From: an uncultured Desulfurococcales archaeon
GTDB taxonomy: Archaea; Thermoproteota; Thermoprotei_A; Sulfolobales; WANQ01
Assembly (NCBI GenBank): GCA_964415135.1
Contig: CAYPZO010000007.1
Coordinates: forward strand, 1-27,007
Direction of reading: 5' to 3'
Length of the DNA: 27,007 nt
Within the stretch, counting starts at the first letter, position 1. Each line of letters starts with the position of its first letter. Shown in pieces: positions 3,429 to 24,050 of the stretch. The translations under genes and the position numbers were made by a program. Below the pieces are notes generated by a model. The model saw only the letters and a list, made by a program, of their open reading frames with translations, ran no database searches and was not told where the DNA came from.

Positions 3429-3442
3429 GTAAACTTTAAATA
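3429..3442 (+). promoter_or_regulatory. Probable BRE/TATA box of leuS
   Basis: GTAAAC followed by TTTAAATA (3435-3442), about 25 nt upstream of a GTGAGGG SD-like motif. Confidence 0.5.
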
Positions 3443-3478
3443 CTACTAGCTAAGCGATGTGTAAGTGAGGGAACGTAT

Positions 3479-6400
3479 ATTGTTGAAGTCAAAGTCAATA
3501 TAAATGTAAAACCCATAAATGAGTTCGCTAAGCTACTTATAGATATAGCTCATAAATGGCAAAAAGCCTGGATGGAACACAGGCTCTTTGAAGCAAATCC
3601 CGACCCCAAGAAACCTAAGTTCTTCCTTACAGCAGCATTTCCATACCCAAATGGACCAGTACACATGGGGCATGCAAGAACATATACCATACCAGACGTA
3701 CTGGCGCGATTTAAGAGAATGCAGGGATACAATGTCCTATTCCCGATGGGATTCCACTACACAGGTACACCAATTATAGCAATAGCAGATGCCATTGCTA
3801 GGGGAGAGAAAAGCTGGATAAACCTCTTTGTGAACGTATTTGGAGTACCTAAGGAAGAACTAGAAAAATTCAAAGAACCGCTTTACATGGCTAGATACTT
3901 CCATGAAGTCAGCAAAATCTCAATGATTGACGCAGGCTATAGTATTGATTGGAGAAGAGAATTCGCTACCATAGACCCACAATTTAGTAAGTTCATACAC
4001 TGGCAATTCCAGAAGCTAAAGGAGAAGGGATTCATAGTTCAAGGAACACATCCGGTTGGTTGGTGTCCTAGAGATAAAATGCCCGTAAGCATGCATGATA
4101 CAAAAGACGATGTCGAACCAGAGATAGGGGAATTCGTACTACTATACTTTAAGGATAAGGATGGAGTAATATACCCTGCAGCAACCCTAAGACCAGAAAC
4201 TGTCTTTGGAGCAATTAATGTATGGGTTAACCCCAACGCAACATACGTTAAAGCAAAAGTAGACAACGAGATATGGGTTATAAGTGAGGATACAGCATAT
4301 AGACTAACATTCCAGTTGAGAAAAGTTGAAGTTATTGAGAAGTTCAAGGGGGAGAAACTACTTGGACTAAGGTTAAGAAACCCTGTAACAGGAGAATACG
4401 TACCCGTACTTCCAGCAACATTTGTTGACCCCAAGATGGGTACAGGAATAGTAATGAGTGTACCAGCACATGCCCCATACGATTACGCAGCACTAATGGG
4501 CTTAAAGCCTTCAGACTTATCAAAGTATAATGTTAAACCTGAAGAACTTAAACCTAGACCATTAATAAAAGTTAAAGGCTATAGCGATATACCAGCAAAA
4601 GACGTCATCGAGAAACTCGAAGTTAAAAGCCAAGAAGATAGAGAGAAACTCGATGAGGCAACCAAGGAGGTCTATGGAGCTGAATTCAAGTACGGCGTTA
4701 TGAGAGACGACATAATACAGTACGTAGCTAAGGACATACCAGAACCAGCTAGAAGCTACATAATAGGATTCGTAAAGTCATGGATTGTAGGAAAACCAGT
4801 AAGTGAAGCTAGAGAAAACATAGCTAAATGGCTTGAAGCATCAGGACTTGCAAGCAGGATGTACGAAATAGTGAACAAGCCAGTATATTGTAGATGTGGA
4901 GCTGAAGTAGTTGTAAAGATACTCGAAGACCAATGGTTCATAGACTACGGCATTGAGGAATGGAAGCAACTTGCACGAGAAGCATTAAAGCAAATGAGAA
5001 TAGTCCCAGAAGAATACAGGTCAAACTTTGAATACACTATAGAATGGATTAAGAGAAGAGCATGTGCAAGAACTCGCGGACTTGGAACAAAACTACCATG
5101 GGTTGATGGGTGGATTATTGAGAGTCTCAGTGATTCAACAATATACATGGCGTACTACACTATAGCACATAAGATTAAGGAATACAAGCTAAAACCAGAG
5201 CAATTAACCTACGAATTCTGGAACTACGTAATGTTAGGAGAAGGAGACGTAAACAAAGTGTCCAAGAAAACTGGAATACCAGTAAAAATCCTCGAAGAAC
5301 TAAGAAATGAATTCGACTACTGGTATCCACTAGACTCAAGACATAGCGGTAAAGACCTAATACCAAATCACTTAACATTCTTCATCTACAATCACGTAGC
5401 CATATTTCCAAGAGAAAAGTGGCCTAGACAAATAGTTGTTAATGGATGGATAACGGTAGGAGGACAAAAGATGAGTAAAAGCCTTGGAAACATCCTGCCA
5501 ATACTATTCGTTAATAGAAAGTATAGCCCAGACGTAGTTAGACTATCACTAATGATAACAGCGGAAGTAGGTCAAGACGGAGACTTTAACGAAGAACTAG
5601 CTAGAAGCGTACTCGACCACTTAAAGAGAATATATGATTTCACACAAAAAGTAAAGGACATGATATGTTACGAGAAACCAGGCAAGCTAGAAGACATAGA
5701 CATTTGGATACTAAACAGGATGCAGAAGCACATAGTGAAGGTAACAGAATCACTAGAAAATGTAAGATTAAGAGAAGCAGCCAACACAATATTCTATATA
5801 ATATATGATGACATCAAGAAGTACATGGATAGAGTTAAGTATCACCTAAACATACCTGAAAGGAGAAAGACCATAGGATGGGTTATAGGGAAAATAGTAA
5901 ACACGTGGATAAGGATGATGGCACCCTATACACCACATCTAGCTGAAGAACTATGGCAAATCATTGGAGGAAAAGGATTCGTCTCCATAGCTCCTTGGCC
6001 TAAAGTTGAAGAAGAATATCTCAGCCCTGAAGTGGAGGTTAAAGAAGAATACATTGAAAGAGTCATACATGACATAGATGAAATAATCAAGGTTATAAAG
6101 AAGAAACCTAGCAAAGTCTACATATATGTCGCTCCAATAGAAATGTATGAACCACTCCAACAAGCCATAAAGTTCGTTGAAGAGTCAAAACCATTAAAAG
6201 ACTTCATAAGATTCATGGTAAGCACAGCTAAAGATAAGAGAAGAGCTGCTGAACAAGCAAAGAAAATATACTCATTAGCACTAGACATACCACCACACAT
6301 TAGAGATATATTAAAACAAGTAAAGATAGATGAGCTCAAAGCATTAACAAGTGCGCTAGATTACATTAAGGGAAAGATAGGAGTACAGGAAATACACGTC

Positions 6401-6487
6401 TATAGCTCAATAGACAAAAAAGCACCCGATCCAGGAAAGAGGAAACACCTAGCATTACCATTTAGACCTGCAATATACGTTGAATAG
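3479..6487 (+). CDS. leuS: Leucine--tRNA ligase, archaeal type. True start is upstream of the ORF-track Met at 3572; 3479 (ATT) is a putative start, 3515 (ATA) an alternative
   Basis: AAFPYPNGPVHMGH (HIGH), CP1 editing motifs ATLRPET and GTGIVMSVPAHAPYD, KMSKS; the conserved KWQxxW segment lies upstream of 3572 in frame. Confidence 0.96.
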   Translation: MVEVKVNINVKPINEFAKLLIDIAHKWQKAWMEHRLFEANPDPKKPKFFLTAAFPYPNGPVHMGHARTYTIPDVLARFKRMQGYNVLFPMGFHYTGTPIIAIADAIARGEKSWINLFVNVFGVPKEELEKFKEPLYMARYFHEVSKISMIDAGYSIDWRREFATIDPQFSKFIHWQFQKLKEKGFIVQGTHPVGWCPRDKMPVSMHDTKDDVEPEIGEFVLLYFKDKDGVIYPAATLRPETVFGAINVWVNPNATYVKAKVDNEIWVISEDTAYRLTFQLRKVEVIEKFKGEKLLGLRLRNPVTGEYVPVLPATFVDPKMGTGIVMSVPAHAPYDYAALMGLKPSDLSKYNVKPEELKPRPLIKVKGYSDIPAKDVIEKLEVKSQEDREKLDEATKEVYGAEFKYGVMRDDIIQYVAKDIPEPARSYIIGFVKSWIVGKPVSEARENIAKWLEASGLASRMYEIVNKPVYCRCGAEVVVKILEDQWFIDYGIEEWKQLAREALKQMRIVPEEYRSNFEYTIEWIKRRACARTRGLGTKLPWVDGWIIESLSDSTIYMAYYTIAHKIKEYKLKPEQLTYEFWNYVMLGEGDVNKVSKKTGIPVKILEELRNEFDYWYPLDSRHSGKDLIPNHLTFFIYNHVAIFPREKWPRQIVVNGWITVGGQKMSKSLGNILPILFVNRKYSPDVVRLSLMITAEVGQDGDFNEELARSVLDHLKRIYDFTQKVKDMICYEKPGKLEDIDIWILNRMQKHIVKVTESLENVRLREAANTIFYIIYDDIKKYMDRVKYHLNIPERRKTIGWVIGKIVNTWIRMMAPYTPHLAEELWQIIGGKGFVSIAPWPKVEEEYLSPEVEVKEEYIERVIHDIDEIIKVIKKKPSKVYIYVAPIEMYEPLQQAIKFVEESKPLKDFIRFMVSTAKDKRRAAEQAKKIYSLALDIPPHIRDILKQVKIDELKALTSALDYIKGKIGVQEIHVYSSIDKKAPDPGKRKHLALPFRPAIYVE

Positions 6488-6488
6488 A

Positions 6489-7199
6489 CTAAATGTTAAG
6501 TAGTATGTAACCTCCCTCTATTTTTACATATTTTTTATCAACGAGCTCTTGTAGTATTTTCCTCGCATACCTCTTATCTATTTTTAAACTTCCCATTAAC
6601 ACATATATGGCATCCTTAGTAGTTATTGTACCATACTCCATTATACTATCCCTTAAAGCATTTAATGCCTTACCCAGAATTCCTCTTGGTGTTTGTAGCA
6701 ATAAACGTATACCAGTAGGCTCAATACATATCCTTATAGCCTCGTTTAGATACGTTAATAGATATTCTCTACCATAGGCATGTTTAAGGTATGCTATTCT
6801 AAATCTTAGCATTTTCCTTAAGTTACCTATCCTACTACATGTTGCAAATAATATTCTTGAAGAACTTCTCTTTAAACTACTTATACATTGCTCGTCTACA
6901 TTAAAGACTAGAATACTTGGTACTTTCTTAACATTATCAAGAGGTAGTATGCATTTATTAAAAATCTTAACAATATCCAATGCGTTTACAACACCATATC
7001 TTTTAGCAATATTATCTAATACTTCTACTCTGTATAATCCAGTATTATCAATTAATATTATTGGCTTGCCCCTATACTTAACTAGCTTAATAGCTACTTC
7101 ACTTATGAAAATCATATTAGCTGACGAGTAAGGGGATAATAAGAATACTCTTACCCCATTAACAACGTCTTGAATGAGCTTTGGTTCATGTCTTTGCAT
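6489..7199 (-). CDS. RadB/RecA-superfamily-like protein with degenerate Walker A and a C-terminal winged helix
   Basis: SPYSSANM in place of GPxxSGKT; IILIDNTGLYRVEVL resembles the RadB/RadA YIDTEGxFxPERL motif; C-terminal ~65 aa has a wHTH-like pattern. Confidence 0.6.
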   Translation of the reverse strand: MQRHEPKLIQDVVNGVRVFLLSPYSSANMIFISEVAIKLVKYRGKPIILIDNTGLYRVEVLDNIAKRYGVVNALDIVKIFNKCILPLDNVKKVPSILVFNVDEQCISSLKRSSSRILFATCSRIGNLRKMLRFRIAYLKHAYGREYLLTYLNEAIRICIEPTGIRLLLQTPRGILGKALNALRDSIMEYGTITTKDAIYVLMGSLKIDKRYARKILQELVDKKYVKIEGGYILLNI

Positions 7200-7257
7200 C
7201 AGCGTAGCTCAGCCTCTTCATCCCTCTACGGTTCGAGCCCAGCTTTCTCATCAGCTA
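7196..7257 (-). ncRNA. C/D box methylation-guide sRNA
   Basis: Minus strand: C box CTGATGA (7254-7248), guide GAAAGCTGGGC, D' TCGA (variant), C' GGATGA, guide AGAGGCTGAGCTACG, D box CTGA (7202-7199). The D guide is complementary to the tRNA D-arm sequence CGUAGCUCAGCCU. Confidence 0.75.
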
Positions 7258-21041: not shown

Positions 21042-22196
21042 TTACTTGCTCTTTTCCCTAGACTTCCTAATCATTTTCCTAACTTCTCTCCAATAATATA
21101 CAAGAGGATTCCTGACATTACACTCACTTACACATAAACCTAAGGTTTTCATGGTAGCACAACTATAGGGCATATATTGTTTCTTTGAACCCCTCAATCC
21201 TGCAAGATGTTCTATCTGATACCTTGCTATTCTCTCATTAAAGTCAGGTACGTTTCTAAAGACATTAAGTACCGACTCTACATCCATACCTATGTGTAGT
21301 AGAAACGTAGCTATAGCAAATCTCTCGTGATGGCTAAGGTTCTCACCATTAACGATAGCATTGTATAACCTACTCATACATGGTGGAAACGCTTCGAGAA
21401 ATACTTGACCCTGAATTCTCTCCTTAAGCTTCTCAAAATACTCCCTAGCTGTTTGAGCACCCTCAATAGCAGCCTTCGATAACATTTCACCTCTAATTTC
21501 CTTAATCATCCCCATTAGTTTATCTATTAATGGTTTAAACTGATCAGGTATTTCCTCTATATACTCTACGCTACTACAAATTCTATCTCTTATGACCTCC
21601 TCGAGTAGTCTAGCAAACTTACGCTTATCTAGATAAACGTAACCCTTCTTAAGGAATTGATTAGTAAGCTTCCATGAAGGATCCTTAGATAGCCTTAATG
21701 TAGCCTTAATATAGTCTACATAGTGTATAGCGTATGGTAGCTCAATATACATAACTTTATCTCTGATTTTCATGTAGGGGATCCTAACTTTCTTTTCACC
21801 TAGATATTGTACATCAATGCCAAGCAATTTACCTATAGCTTCAAGGACAACATCTTCATCCTTAACTAAGTGTTCATAAACTCTCTTAGCTTCAGCATCA
21901 GCATACCTAGTTATAAGCCACTTATCATTGATGAAGCCCAACAATATTAGACTCAAATAGTATGCAAGTACTTCTTCGTCAGTTGATATATCAGCCGGAG
22001 GATTAGGTATAGAACCTTTTTTTAAAGCATTAATTATTCTCTCCTCAGCTCTTTCAACGATTTTCCCTCTAGTGAAGGAAACTATATCTAGAATACTAAC
22101 TCCTTCAGCATACCTTTCCTTGATGAACTTACCTATGTTTACTATAAATGGATACTTCCTATAGTCTATGAAAGCTCTCCTAGCTCTTGAATACAC
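21042..22196 (-). CDS. priL: DNA primase large (regulatory, Fe-S) subunit
   Basis: KYPF at the N-terminus, WKLTNQFLKKGYVYL, FPPCM, NLSHHERF, FNERIARYQIEH, YSCATMKTLGLC. Confidence 0.93.
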   Translation of the reverse strand: MYSRARRAFIDYRKYPFIVNIGKFIKERYAEGVSILDIVSFTRGKIVERAEERIINALKKGSIPNPPADISTDEEVLAYYLSLILLGFINDKWLITRYADAEAKRVYEHLVKDEDVVLEAIGKLLGIDVQYLGEKKVRIPYMKIRDKVMYIELPYAIHYVDYIKATLRLSKDPSWKLTNQFLKKGYVYLDKRKFARLLEEVIRDRICSSVEYIEEIPDQFKPLIDKLMGMIKEIRGEMLSKAAIEGAQTAREYFEKLKERIQGQVFLEAFPPCMSRLYNAIVNGENLSHHERFAIATFLLHIGMDVESVLNVFRNVPDFNERIARYQIEHLAGLRGSKKQYMPYSCATMKTLGLCVSECNVRNPLVYYWREVRKMIRKSREKSK

Positions 22197-22334
22197 GCTT
22201 CTACTCCTATTATCCTATATCATATATTTAATGAGTTAATTAAATAATAGCCTACATTAAGTTTAAAAAGACTACAATATAGTAATACTATGAATACCCA
22301 GATATAAATCAAGAGCTCGTGGGGGTGAGTTAAA

Positions 22335-24050
22335 CTCCCCAAATGGGTTGTATGTTCGGCATGGCCCTACGTAAATACAGTTCCACATTTAGGTAACATG
22401 ATAGGCTCAATACTAAGTGCAGACGTATTTGCTAGATACCTAAGACTAAAAGGAGAAGACATAGTATTCGTCAGCGGAAGCGATGAACATGGAACACCAA
22501 TAGAAGTTGAAGCTAAGAGAAAAGGAATAGAACCAAAACAACTCACAGGCCAAGTACACGAATACGTTTCAGAACTATTCAGGAAATGGAGAATAAGCTT
22601 TAGCAACTATACGAGAACAGAAAGCGAAGTCCATAAAAAGTTCGTACAAGAGTTCTGGCTAAAAATATACAAGAAAGGATACATATACGTACAAGAAGAA
22701 ATACTACCATATTGTCCTAAAGACGACATATTCCTACCAGACAGGTTCATAAAAGGTAAATGCCCATTCTGTGGTTACGAAGAAGCTCACGGAGACCAAT
22801 GCGATAAATGTGGAAGACTACTACACCCAACAGAACTAATAAATCCAAGATGCGTATTCTGTGGATCAAAACCAGTATATAAGAGAACAAAACACTGGTT
22901 CTTTGACCTACCCAAGCTCACGGAAAAACTGAGAAAATGGCTTGAAGAACACTCACAATTCCCTGATAACGTTAAGAGATTCTCATTAAGCTGGGTTAAA
23001 GAGGGATTAAAGCCTAGAAGCATTACTAGGGACAATAAGTGGGGTATACCAGCACCATTCCCAGGATCAGAAGGAAAGACAATATACGTGTGGTTCGATG
23101 CTGTCATAGGGTATATCTCGGCAACAAAAGAGTACGGAGAACGAATAGGTAAACCAGAACTATGGAAAGAATACTGGTTCAACAAAGACACTCGTACCGT
23201 ATACTTCATAGGTAAAGACAACATACCATTCCATGCAGTACTACTTCCCGCCATGATGCTAGCAACAGGAGATCCATATACCCTACCATACCAAATAGCA
23301 GCAACAGAATACCTAATGTTCGAGGGAGAGAAATTCAGTAAAAGTAAAGGCATAGGAGTATGGATTGACGAAGCACTAGAAATAGCCGATGTAGACTACT
23401 GGAGATTCGCATTAATAAGAATGAGACCTGAAGTTAGAGACACAAACTTCACATGGAGAGAATTCTATAGAATAGTAAACAGCGAATTAAACGATGATAT
23501 AGGAAACTACGTTCACAGAGTACTAACATTCACATGGAATAGATATAAAGGTAAAGTACCAGAACCAGGCAAGCTAAAAGAAGTAGATAAAGAATTCATT
23601 GAAAACATAGGGAAGAAGGTAGATGAAGCAGATAAATACTTTAACGAAGTAAGACTCAAACAAGCATCAGAACCCGTTCTTGAAGTAGCAAGACTAGGAA
23701 ATCAATACCTAAATACTAAAGAACCGTGGAGGAAATTCAAAGAAGAACCAGAAGACGCAGCAACAACAATTTACCTATCAATAAACTCACTAAAAACACT
23801 AGCAATACTAATGGAGCCATTCATGCCGGAGATAGCTGAAAAACTATGGAATATGCTGAACCTATCAGGAAGTGTTCATGTAGCTAAATGGAGTGAAGCA
23901 AAGGAATTAACTATAAAGCCAGGACATGAAATTAAGAAACCTCAACCATTATTCAAGAAGCTACCACCAGACTTCTTAGAGAAAGTAAATGATATCTTAT
24001 TAGAAGCTAGAAGAAAAGCGCATGCAAAGAGGCCTAGGGTCCTTGAATAA
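22335..24050 (+). CDS. metG: Methionine--tRNA ligase (short form without the C-terminal tRNA-binding appendix). ORF-track start 22398 is internal; 22335 (CTC) is the putative start
   Basis: In-frame upstream [19 protein letters not shown] contains the HIGH motif (HLGN); also GSDEHGT, Zn knuckles, [14 protein letters not shown] and KFSKS. Confidence 0.96.

Follow-up and report, generated by a model that had tools for sequence, protein, structure and literature searches.

A methionyl-tRNA synthetase gene with no NUG start codon

We analysed a 27,007-nucleotide (nt) stretch of DNA from an uncultured Desulfurococcales archaeon (GenBank assembly GCA_964415135.1, contig CAYPZO010000007.1, positions 1 to 27,007 of the forward strand; hereafter the window), which is contig C7 of the metagenome-assembled genome (MAG) G000, an assembly of 292 contigs estimated to be 90% complete with DNA originating from metagenomes of hydrothermal vents and sediments. 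Our subject is the start of metG, an open frame near the end of the window whose predicted product is a class I methionyl-tRNA synthetase (MetRS) with a Rossmann domain carrying HIGH- and KMSKS-type motifs, followed by an anticodon domain. The motifs are SAWPY (22356–22370), HLGN of the HIGH type (22386–22397) and KFSKS (23331–23345), and the Pfam domain tRNA-synt_1g (PF09334) covers residues 7–399 of 573 (E 3e-161, beginning at profile position 2) with the MetRS anticodon domain Anticodon_3 (PF19303) at residues 410–548. The closest solved structure is that of the Pyrococcus abyssi enzyme, 1rqg. The features discussed here are listed in Table 1.

Table 1. Sequence features at and around the start of metG (positions are those of the window).
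Feature	Positions	Strand	Remarks
TATA-box-like element TTTAAAAAG	22262..22270	+	59–67 nt upstream of the open frame; identical motif in the window, the strains and the sister species
Shine-Dalgarno-type motif GGGGGTGA	22321..22328	+	Its TGA (22326–22328) is an in-frame stop that closes the metG frame upstream
Bulged 7-bp hairpin (predicted)	22323..22340	+	GGG-U-GAGU (22323–22330) / UAA loop / ACUC-CCC (22334–22340)
Out-of-frame mini-ORF GTG AGT TAA	22325..22333	+	Frame -1 relative to metG
metG open frame	22329..24050	+	573 codons plus TAA; class I MetRS (predicted)
CTC, most likely initiation position	22335..22337	+	Codon 3 of the open frame; chosen on spacing, conservation and homology
Out-of-frame 17-codon ORF from ATG	22343..22396	+	Its ATG is a by-product of AAA TGG, which encodes Lys-Trp
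ATG, first in-frame NUG	22398..22400	+	Codon 24; downstream of SAWPY and HLGN

The metG frame begins GTT AAA CTC CCC AAA TGG GTT GTA TGT TCG GCA TGG CCC TAC, and ATG, GTG and TTG (collectively NUG) are absent from it between the TGA at 22326 and HLGN. The sister species, represented by the same-genus genome G001 (99% complete, with a MetRS that is 87% identical in amino acids to that of G000), reads GGAGGTGA GCA AAG CTC CCT AAA TGG ATA GTA TGT TCC GCG TGG at the same place, and also has an in-frame TGA and no NUG ahead of HLGN. These two species-level clusters make up the genus in the sources that we searched (metagenome contigs, GTDB species representatives and 5.8 billion proteins). A first-pass annotation of the window, made from the sequence alone, had described the Shine-Dalgarno (SD) motif, the TGA, the codons, the motif positions and the ATG at 22343 correctly in every element, and its claim that metG cannot start at a NUG codon holds for the window and for the sister species alike. 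The public gene calls of this MetRS (P0003, P0004 and P0123–125) are all 550 amino acids (aa) long and begin at the equivalent of the ATG at 22398, and these versions do not contain the catalytic HIGH-type motif. The element TTTAAAAAG is presumed to be the promoter of metG, so that the leader would measure some 40 nt.

Searches of G000 and of the 99%-complete G001 turned up no second MetRS; the other matches were leucyl-tRNA synthetase (LeuRS) and class I paralogues with no more than 30% identity. As metG is intact, exists in one copy and is NUG-less in the sister species too, it must be started in some non-standard way.

Strain variation around the metG start

The first-pass annotation had pointed out that CTG or ATG at 22335, or one G fewer, would reveal the missing start as an assembly error. 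We placed contigs of other sequencing runs (contigs rather than raw reads) on positions 22150–22650, and compared the start with that in ten further assemblies (six of this species and four of the sister) obtained from ENA, JGI and Logan and representing at least eight samples. A contig piece from one other sample was identical over 22279–22462, and a strain contig with a depth of 34 differed at 22308, 22310 and 22317–22320 plus two synonymous sites, with nothing changed in 22321–22378. The ten assemblies have the same letters at 22321–22378, except that one strain carries C>A at 22340 which has no effect on either tested feature. Neither sign of an artefact was present in any of these sequences, which as contigs may pass over rare variants, and an artefact as the explanation for the missing NUG is essentially excluded.

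The distribution of strain differences is uneven. The 13 bases just before 22321 hold six of them, and this dense divergence runs to 22320 and stops at 22321, indicating that constraint starts exactly at the G-run. Within 22321–22400 there are five strain differences, every one of which is synonymous in the metG frame.

These observations also bear on the wider suggestion that the start was lost through an assembly or sequencing error, or that metG is a pseudogene that has been replaced by another MetRS. The fragmented and incomplete state of the MAG speaks for such an explanation, as does the existence of a different type of MetRS, of about 500 aa, which some members of the family use. Set against this are the identical letters in contigs of other runs and in the ten assemblies, the same NUG-less state in a species that has diverged by 13% in the protein, a frame which stays open over all of its codons with purely synonymous strain variation, and the lack of a second MetRS in the nearly complete sister genome, and we regard error or decay as very improbable.

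The candidate start at CTC 22335

The spacing of SD motifs and start codons elsewhere in the genome identifies where a start would be expected. GGTGA lies 4–8 nt ahead of the NUG starts of about 136 ORFs (open reading frames) of G000, and motifs beside ORF starts are separated from the NUG by 4 nt (21 cases), 5 nt (36), 6 nt (44), 7 nt (24) or 8 nt (11). The CTC codon of metG is 6 nt past GGTGA in both species, which is the modal spacing, and the spacing given in the first-pass annotation (6 nt, with 4–7 nt for other genes) was sound, the spread across the genome being 4–8 nt. The strong SD at the usual spacing that is characteristic of starts of the infC type is therefore present as GGGGGTGA in the window and GGAGGTGA in the sister. 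Such starts also have a codon with a single mismatch to AUG, GUG or UUG 4–8 nt past the SD that is conserved in relatives, and there metG has CTC alone, with two mismatches to AUG. The codons with one mismatch are at other distances and each is found in one species only, with AAG 3 nt from the SD in the sister and GTT 0 nt from it in this species.

Homology points to the same position. Orthologues across the order begin M-[A/G/P/S]-K-W-[V/I]-V and the genus has L-P-K-W at the same place. The start codon of the orthologues is found two codons before K-W and may be ATG (L011 with MPKW, L113, L117 and L126, the last a Pyrodictiaceae MAG), GTG (L006 and L114) or TTG (L040 and L115), usually 5–8 nt after an SD; in G005 (= L006), for example, GAGGTGA is followed after 8 nt by GTG GCT AAA TGG. 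The P. abyssi MetRS aligns with its residues 3–4 on K-W, and residues 3–117 of 1rqg align with residues 5–119 of the metG product, which places Met1 on the CTC codon. The ATG, GTG or TTG of the orthologues thus falls on the position of CTC, and the sister species, as well as all of the strains, also has CTC there. The first-pass annotation had proposed that CUC (or GUU) initiates, and of these CTC is the better placed by SD spacing and orthologue homology, whereas GTT, directly next to the SD and replaced by GCA in the sister, is an unlikely start.

Codon 4 (22338–22340) is CCC, CCA or CCT in three lineages. As this codon has changed only synonymously, the metG frame must be read from 22338 at the latest, which argues against the ATG at 22343 and against starts further downstream. 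It should be noted that the codon and covariation evidence at the metG start comes from three distinct sequences in all.

A putative hairpin over the SD motif and the candidate start

The SD motif and the proposed start can be folded together into a predicted hairpin in which the SD pairs with the third base of AAA, CUC and CCC, and CUC lies opposite the GAG of GGUGAG. With flanks, the minimum-free-energy fold reaches -13.9 kcal/mol (z -2.75) in the window, against -10.6 kcal/mol (z -2.41) for the sister species. The hairpin differs between the species at five positions, of which four make up two compensatory changes (U-A to C-G, and G-C to A-U) and one lies in the loop; in slid controls no pairs (0) were changed on both sides. 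Over the 7 bp, 95% of cells are paired. The statistics are weak, 54 of 500 shuffles reaching the score with the three distinct sequences, but the changes themselves follow a clean pattern. No Rfam family matched the region at E ≤ 1. This appears to be an SD-sequestering stem with compensatory changes.

Two consequences follow from the pairing. As the SD pairs with CUC-CCC, the SD and the proposed start would be sequestered together, and as CUC pairs with the SD, the invariance of CTC cannot be counted in favour of its use as a start codon. G005, with its normal GTG start, does not have the hairpin, whose presence thus coincides with the loss of the NUG.

Non-NUG starts across the genus

We surveyed start codons by comparing the stop-to-stop ORFs of G000 with 787 kb of G001, which gave 481 orthologue pairs. 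The count of conserved genes without a NUG, which the first-pass annotation had also raised, came to about eight pairs in which neither species has a NUG at the conserved N-terminus or ahead of it, and about seven more in which one of the two lacks it. Some 2–3% of the genes of the genus seem to be started at ATT, ATC, ATA or ACG, most of them with a one-mismatch codon at SD+5 to +7, the SD being a motif of the GGTGA type.

The second synthetase gene in the window is among these. In leuS (ORF 3440–6487; window 3467–3481) there is no NUG before the conserved KWQKAW, and ATT 3479 is located 7 nt after GAGGG in an ATT GTT GAR motif shared by the family's three genera. Five codons further on, the other genera retain an ATG which this genus has lost. 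The earlier claim that leuS is also affected was borne out in a milder form, with this family-wide conserved ATT being available. Further examples include birA (C24:15067–16029), where ATT is codon 2, a helix-turn-helix domain begins at residue 8 and no NUG occurs until codon 35; a metallo-beta-lactamase-fold gene with GGTGA, 5 nt and then ACG; and HycI, DUF711 and methyltransferase genes with ATA or ATT at +6. Loci of G000 with such starts include C21:2652–3542 (ACG), C27:7077–7598, C44:6915–8003 and C66:2921–3781. ATG has also been replaced directly by ATC or ACG between the two species, for example at C24:197–1672 (ATC, with ATG in the sister). From such sequence comparisons near-cognate initiation looks routine in the genus, and the frequency of non-NUG starts suggests a relaxed start-codon stringency.

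Several other loci were recorded alongside the survey. A gene on the minus strand of the window (6489–7208) starts GCT ACG CTG ATG, where the first-pass annotation had noted a CTGATG fused to the D box of a C/D small RNA, and the sister locus (L079) has GCT ACG CTG AAT, leaving ACG or CTG as the sole candidates. Other MetRS lineages also have no NUG at the homologous start (L053–L057 and L123, from soil and other MAGs, and L058): one soil group reads CGA CTG GGA AAA TGG, where CTG occupies the start position and the ATG upstream is not always in frame, and L058 has taa CAA AAT ATT CTG ATT ACT TCA with ATT or CTG on offer. Finally, at C158:2153–2895 (minus strand) the 5' half of a tRNA reported by ARAGORN matches tRNA-Gln and its anticodon loop is followed by an insert of 667 nt; the locus may hold a tRNA-Gln(UUG) gene interrupted by a very long intron.

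Parallels in aRF1 and pheS

Two further genes of the translation apparatus have unusual starts. The release factor gene aRF1 (C118:3773–4900; L102/L129) has no in-frame start and instead shows GGG ATG GGT ATT TGA G, with the aRF1 frame in +1. A three-codon mini-ORF of the form ATG AGT NTT TAG C or ATG RGT ATT TGA G is found in all eight genomes of the family and in several other families of the order (L130–L151), and orthologues that do not have the mini-ORF start ATG AGT AGC. This looks like an autoregulatory +1 frameshift of the prfB type, judging by the arrangement of frames. Autoregulation of this type was stated to be absent from archaeal release factors in a 2012 paper (PMC3521657), and for aRF1 it is unmentioned in a 2021 review of archaeal recoding (PMC8211752).

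The gene for the alpha subunit of phenylalanyl-tRNA synthetase, pheS (C21:13123–14706, minus strand; L100), reads GGGGTGA GCT/GCC ATT/GTT GAG CCA ATT TCG ATA (...GCT AAT in G000), with ATT and ATA as candidate starts and the first NUG at codon 46–47 (47 in G000). After codon 2, a run of 21 bases is shared without change by the sister, in a gene whose N-terminal domain is just 57% identical between the two. An out-of-frame mini-ORF, GTG AGC TAT TGA G, has the same geometry as that of aRF1, and in other genera of the family pheS has a normal TTG or ATG start. On these features we consider pheS the nearest apparent parallel of metG in the genome.

Weighing the routes into the metG frame

The reading that we prefer, tentatively and at a little short of an even chance, is an SD-positioned start on a non-NUG codon of metG, most probably CUC 22335, modulated by an SD-sequestering hairpin. 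The strong SD GGGGGTGA would position the 30S subunit and translation would start in the metG frame, most probably at this CUC six bases downstream, with initiator tRNA presumably starting on it; the SD and start codon would be the two arms of the hairpin, which probably throttles or conditions initiation in what may be a regulatory role. Several considerations weigh against this. CUC pairs with the CAU anticodon through the middle base only, and the other non-NUG starts that we assign in G000 are all one-mismatch codons (ATT, ATC, ATA, ACG and CTG), making metG an outlier. The invariance of CTC and the AAA/AAG and CCC/CCT changes could be explained equally by the hairpin pairing, and the hairpin, if stable, would hide both the SD and the proposed start. 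The +1 frameshift device that aRF1 of the same lineage appears to have also makes recoding of metG plausible by analogy.

In such a recoding, translation would begin at the out-of-frame GUG at 22325 in GGGGGUGA and shift by +1 at the stop of the mini-ORF, the shift sites being AGU UAA A here and CCC UAA A in the sister (from GUG, or from an AUG two codons upstream) and the products MSKLPKW... and MSKAPKW... respectively. The sister counterpart of the GTG AGT TAA mini-ORF is (ATG GAG) GTG AGC AAA GCT CCC TAA, so that both species have a mini-ORF in frame -1 which ends in UAA-A and both products would be colinear and nearly identical; CCC-UAA is a classical shift-prone site, the motif GGG-RUG-AGY is common to aRF1, pheS and metG, and aRF1 of G000, its family and other families of the order is readable only by a +1 shift. 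However, the shift site of metG differs between the species, with that of the sister nine bases further on, and re-pairing from AGU to GUU would be poor. A shift-prone P-site codon with a stop at a conserved position, as in prfB, is not seen in metG; aRF1 keeps NUU-U and a stop across families. Nor is an SD-like element found 2–3 nt before the shift codon of metG, unlike in prfB, aRF1 and pheS. As to initiation signals, GUG 22325 is conserved but forms part of the SD, with no other SD 4–8 nt ahead of it; the upstream GTG at 22319 reads AGG in other strains, and the SD-like element nearest to the ATG of the sister (AGGGAG) is 13 nt off with none at 4–8 nt. By homology with G005, GGTGA is instead the SD of a start two codons before K-W. 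We therefore consider that recoding is unlikely, though it deserves to be kept in view.

A start past the hairpin, at codon 7 (GTT 22347, or ATA in the sister) or codon 8 (GTA 22350 in both), would give a very short N-terminus, (M)VCSAWPY or (M)CSAWPY. In the fold, the bases on the 3' side of the hairpin are unpaired, ATA is a start type of the genus and is codon 7 in the sister, and some MetRS proteins (L058) have only 3–4 residues before [TS]SA. Against these points, codon 7 is GTT in this species, either codon would be 18–21 nt from the SD, K-W is conserved in the orthologue proteins with residues 3–4 of the P. abyssi enzyme aligning there, and the Pfam domain begins at residue 7 in a frame where codon 4 varies synonymously only. 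A start this far downstream is accordingly improbable.

Other routes were examined and rejected. The ATG at 22343, as a four-base start or with an instant +1 shift, is 14 nt from the SD and its peptide is not conserved in the sister, and from the sequences this ORF was judged incidental. An upstream start with read-through of the TGA has only ATC AAG AGC TCG TGG GGG in frame after the TAA at 22305, and this frame is broken by a 1-nt deletion at 22317 in the other strains. A -1 frameshift out of the third frame would need a NUG and a slippery heptamer, and neither is present there. Splicing of a bulge-helix-bulge intron to join an upstream ATG was set aside, since only a simple bulged hairpin is predicted and the sister shows no upstream exon with an ATG to match. 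In the case of a special initiator tRNA that reads CUC, ARAGORN shows an ordinary long-arm tRNA-Leu(GAG) and a CAU-bearing, initiator-like gene which contains an intron, neither of them unusual in appearance, with tRNA detection being incomplete in this MAG.

Implications

If CUC, or any other codon with two mismatches, is the natural and only start of an essential gene, then SD placement can override codon–anticodon checking in an archaeon far beyond known cases, and metG would provide a natural template with which the fidelity of archaeal start-codon selection (aIF1 and aIF2) becomes directly testable. The first-pass annotation had raised the possibility of feedback control. In the fullest version of the start at CUC, the sole MetRS of the genus would start there by SD placement alone under the gate of the hairpin, and its output would follow start stringency and the supply of initiator methionyl-tRNA (Met-tRNAi) in a feedback loop on the enzyme which charges initiator tRNA, a proposition that we hold to be doubtful. 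If the +1 shift after a two-codon mini-ORF is true instead, metG would be a second recoded translation gene beside aRF1 in these archaea. Either way, every public call of this MetRS stands in need of its catalytic HIGH-type motif, and the 2–3% of genes of the genus that gene callers appear to mis-start would bias annotation, completeness estimates and metabolic inferences for such MAGs.

Comparison with known systems

Whichever route is used, metG is an essential gene without a canonical or near-cognate start that has been kept in this state, with its SD tied structurally to the start position. This combination seems to set it apart from the known kinds of unusual start, namely near-cognate starts, recoding of the prfB type and SD-sequestering operators.

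The AUU starts of Escherichia coli infC (which encodes IF3) and pcnB are weak near-cognate starts. metG resembles infC in being a gene of the translation apparatus with a strong SD and no AUG, GUG or UUG, and leuS with ATT 3479 and several other genes of the genus fit this type well. In contrast, metG of either species lacks a one-mismatch codon at a distance that could be used, and CUC mismatches AUG at two of the three positions; to our knowledge no start of the CUC kind is established in any system. In Sulfolobus, aIF1 discriminates against non-canonical starts, as cited in PMC6237735.

The bacterial prfB gene (RF2) uses a programmed +1 frameshift at CUU UGA C with an upstream SD-like element. 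metG shares with prfB an early stop in the frame of initiation, a main frame that lies in +1 and a neighbouring G-rich element resembling an SD, and aRF1 appears to be a genuine case in the same genome. Unlike in prfB, the SD-like element of metG overlaps the start of the mini-ORF and the shift site, with its poor AGU to GUU re-pairing, is not conserved.

E. coli thrS is autoregulated through a translational operator that sequesters the SD or start of a synthetase gene. metG similarly has an aminoacyl-tRNA synthetase mRNA with the ribosome-binding site in what appears to be a conserved, covarying stem-loop, but this predicted hairpin matches no Rfam family, and its loop (UAA/AAA) bears no resemblance to the anticodon loop of tRNA-Met. 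In yeast, the synthetase genes ALA1 and GRS1 also use non-AUG codons (ACG and UUG, respectively) to produce isoforms. These are near-cognate codons which provide an extra isoform by leaky scanning, whereas the unusual start of metG has to supply the enzyme in its only form.

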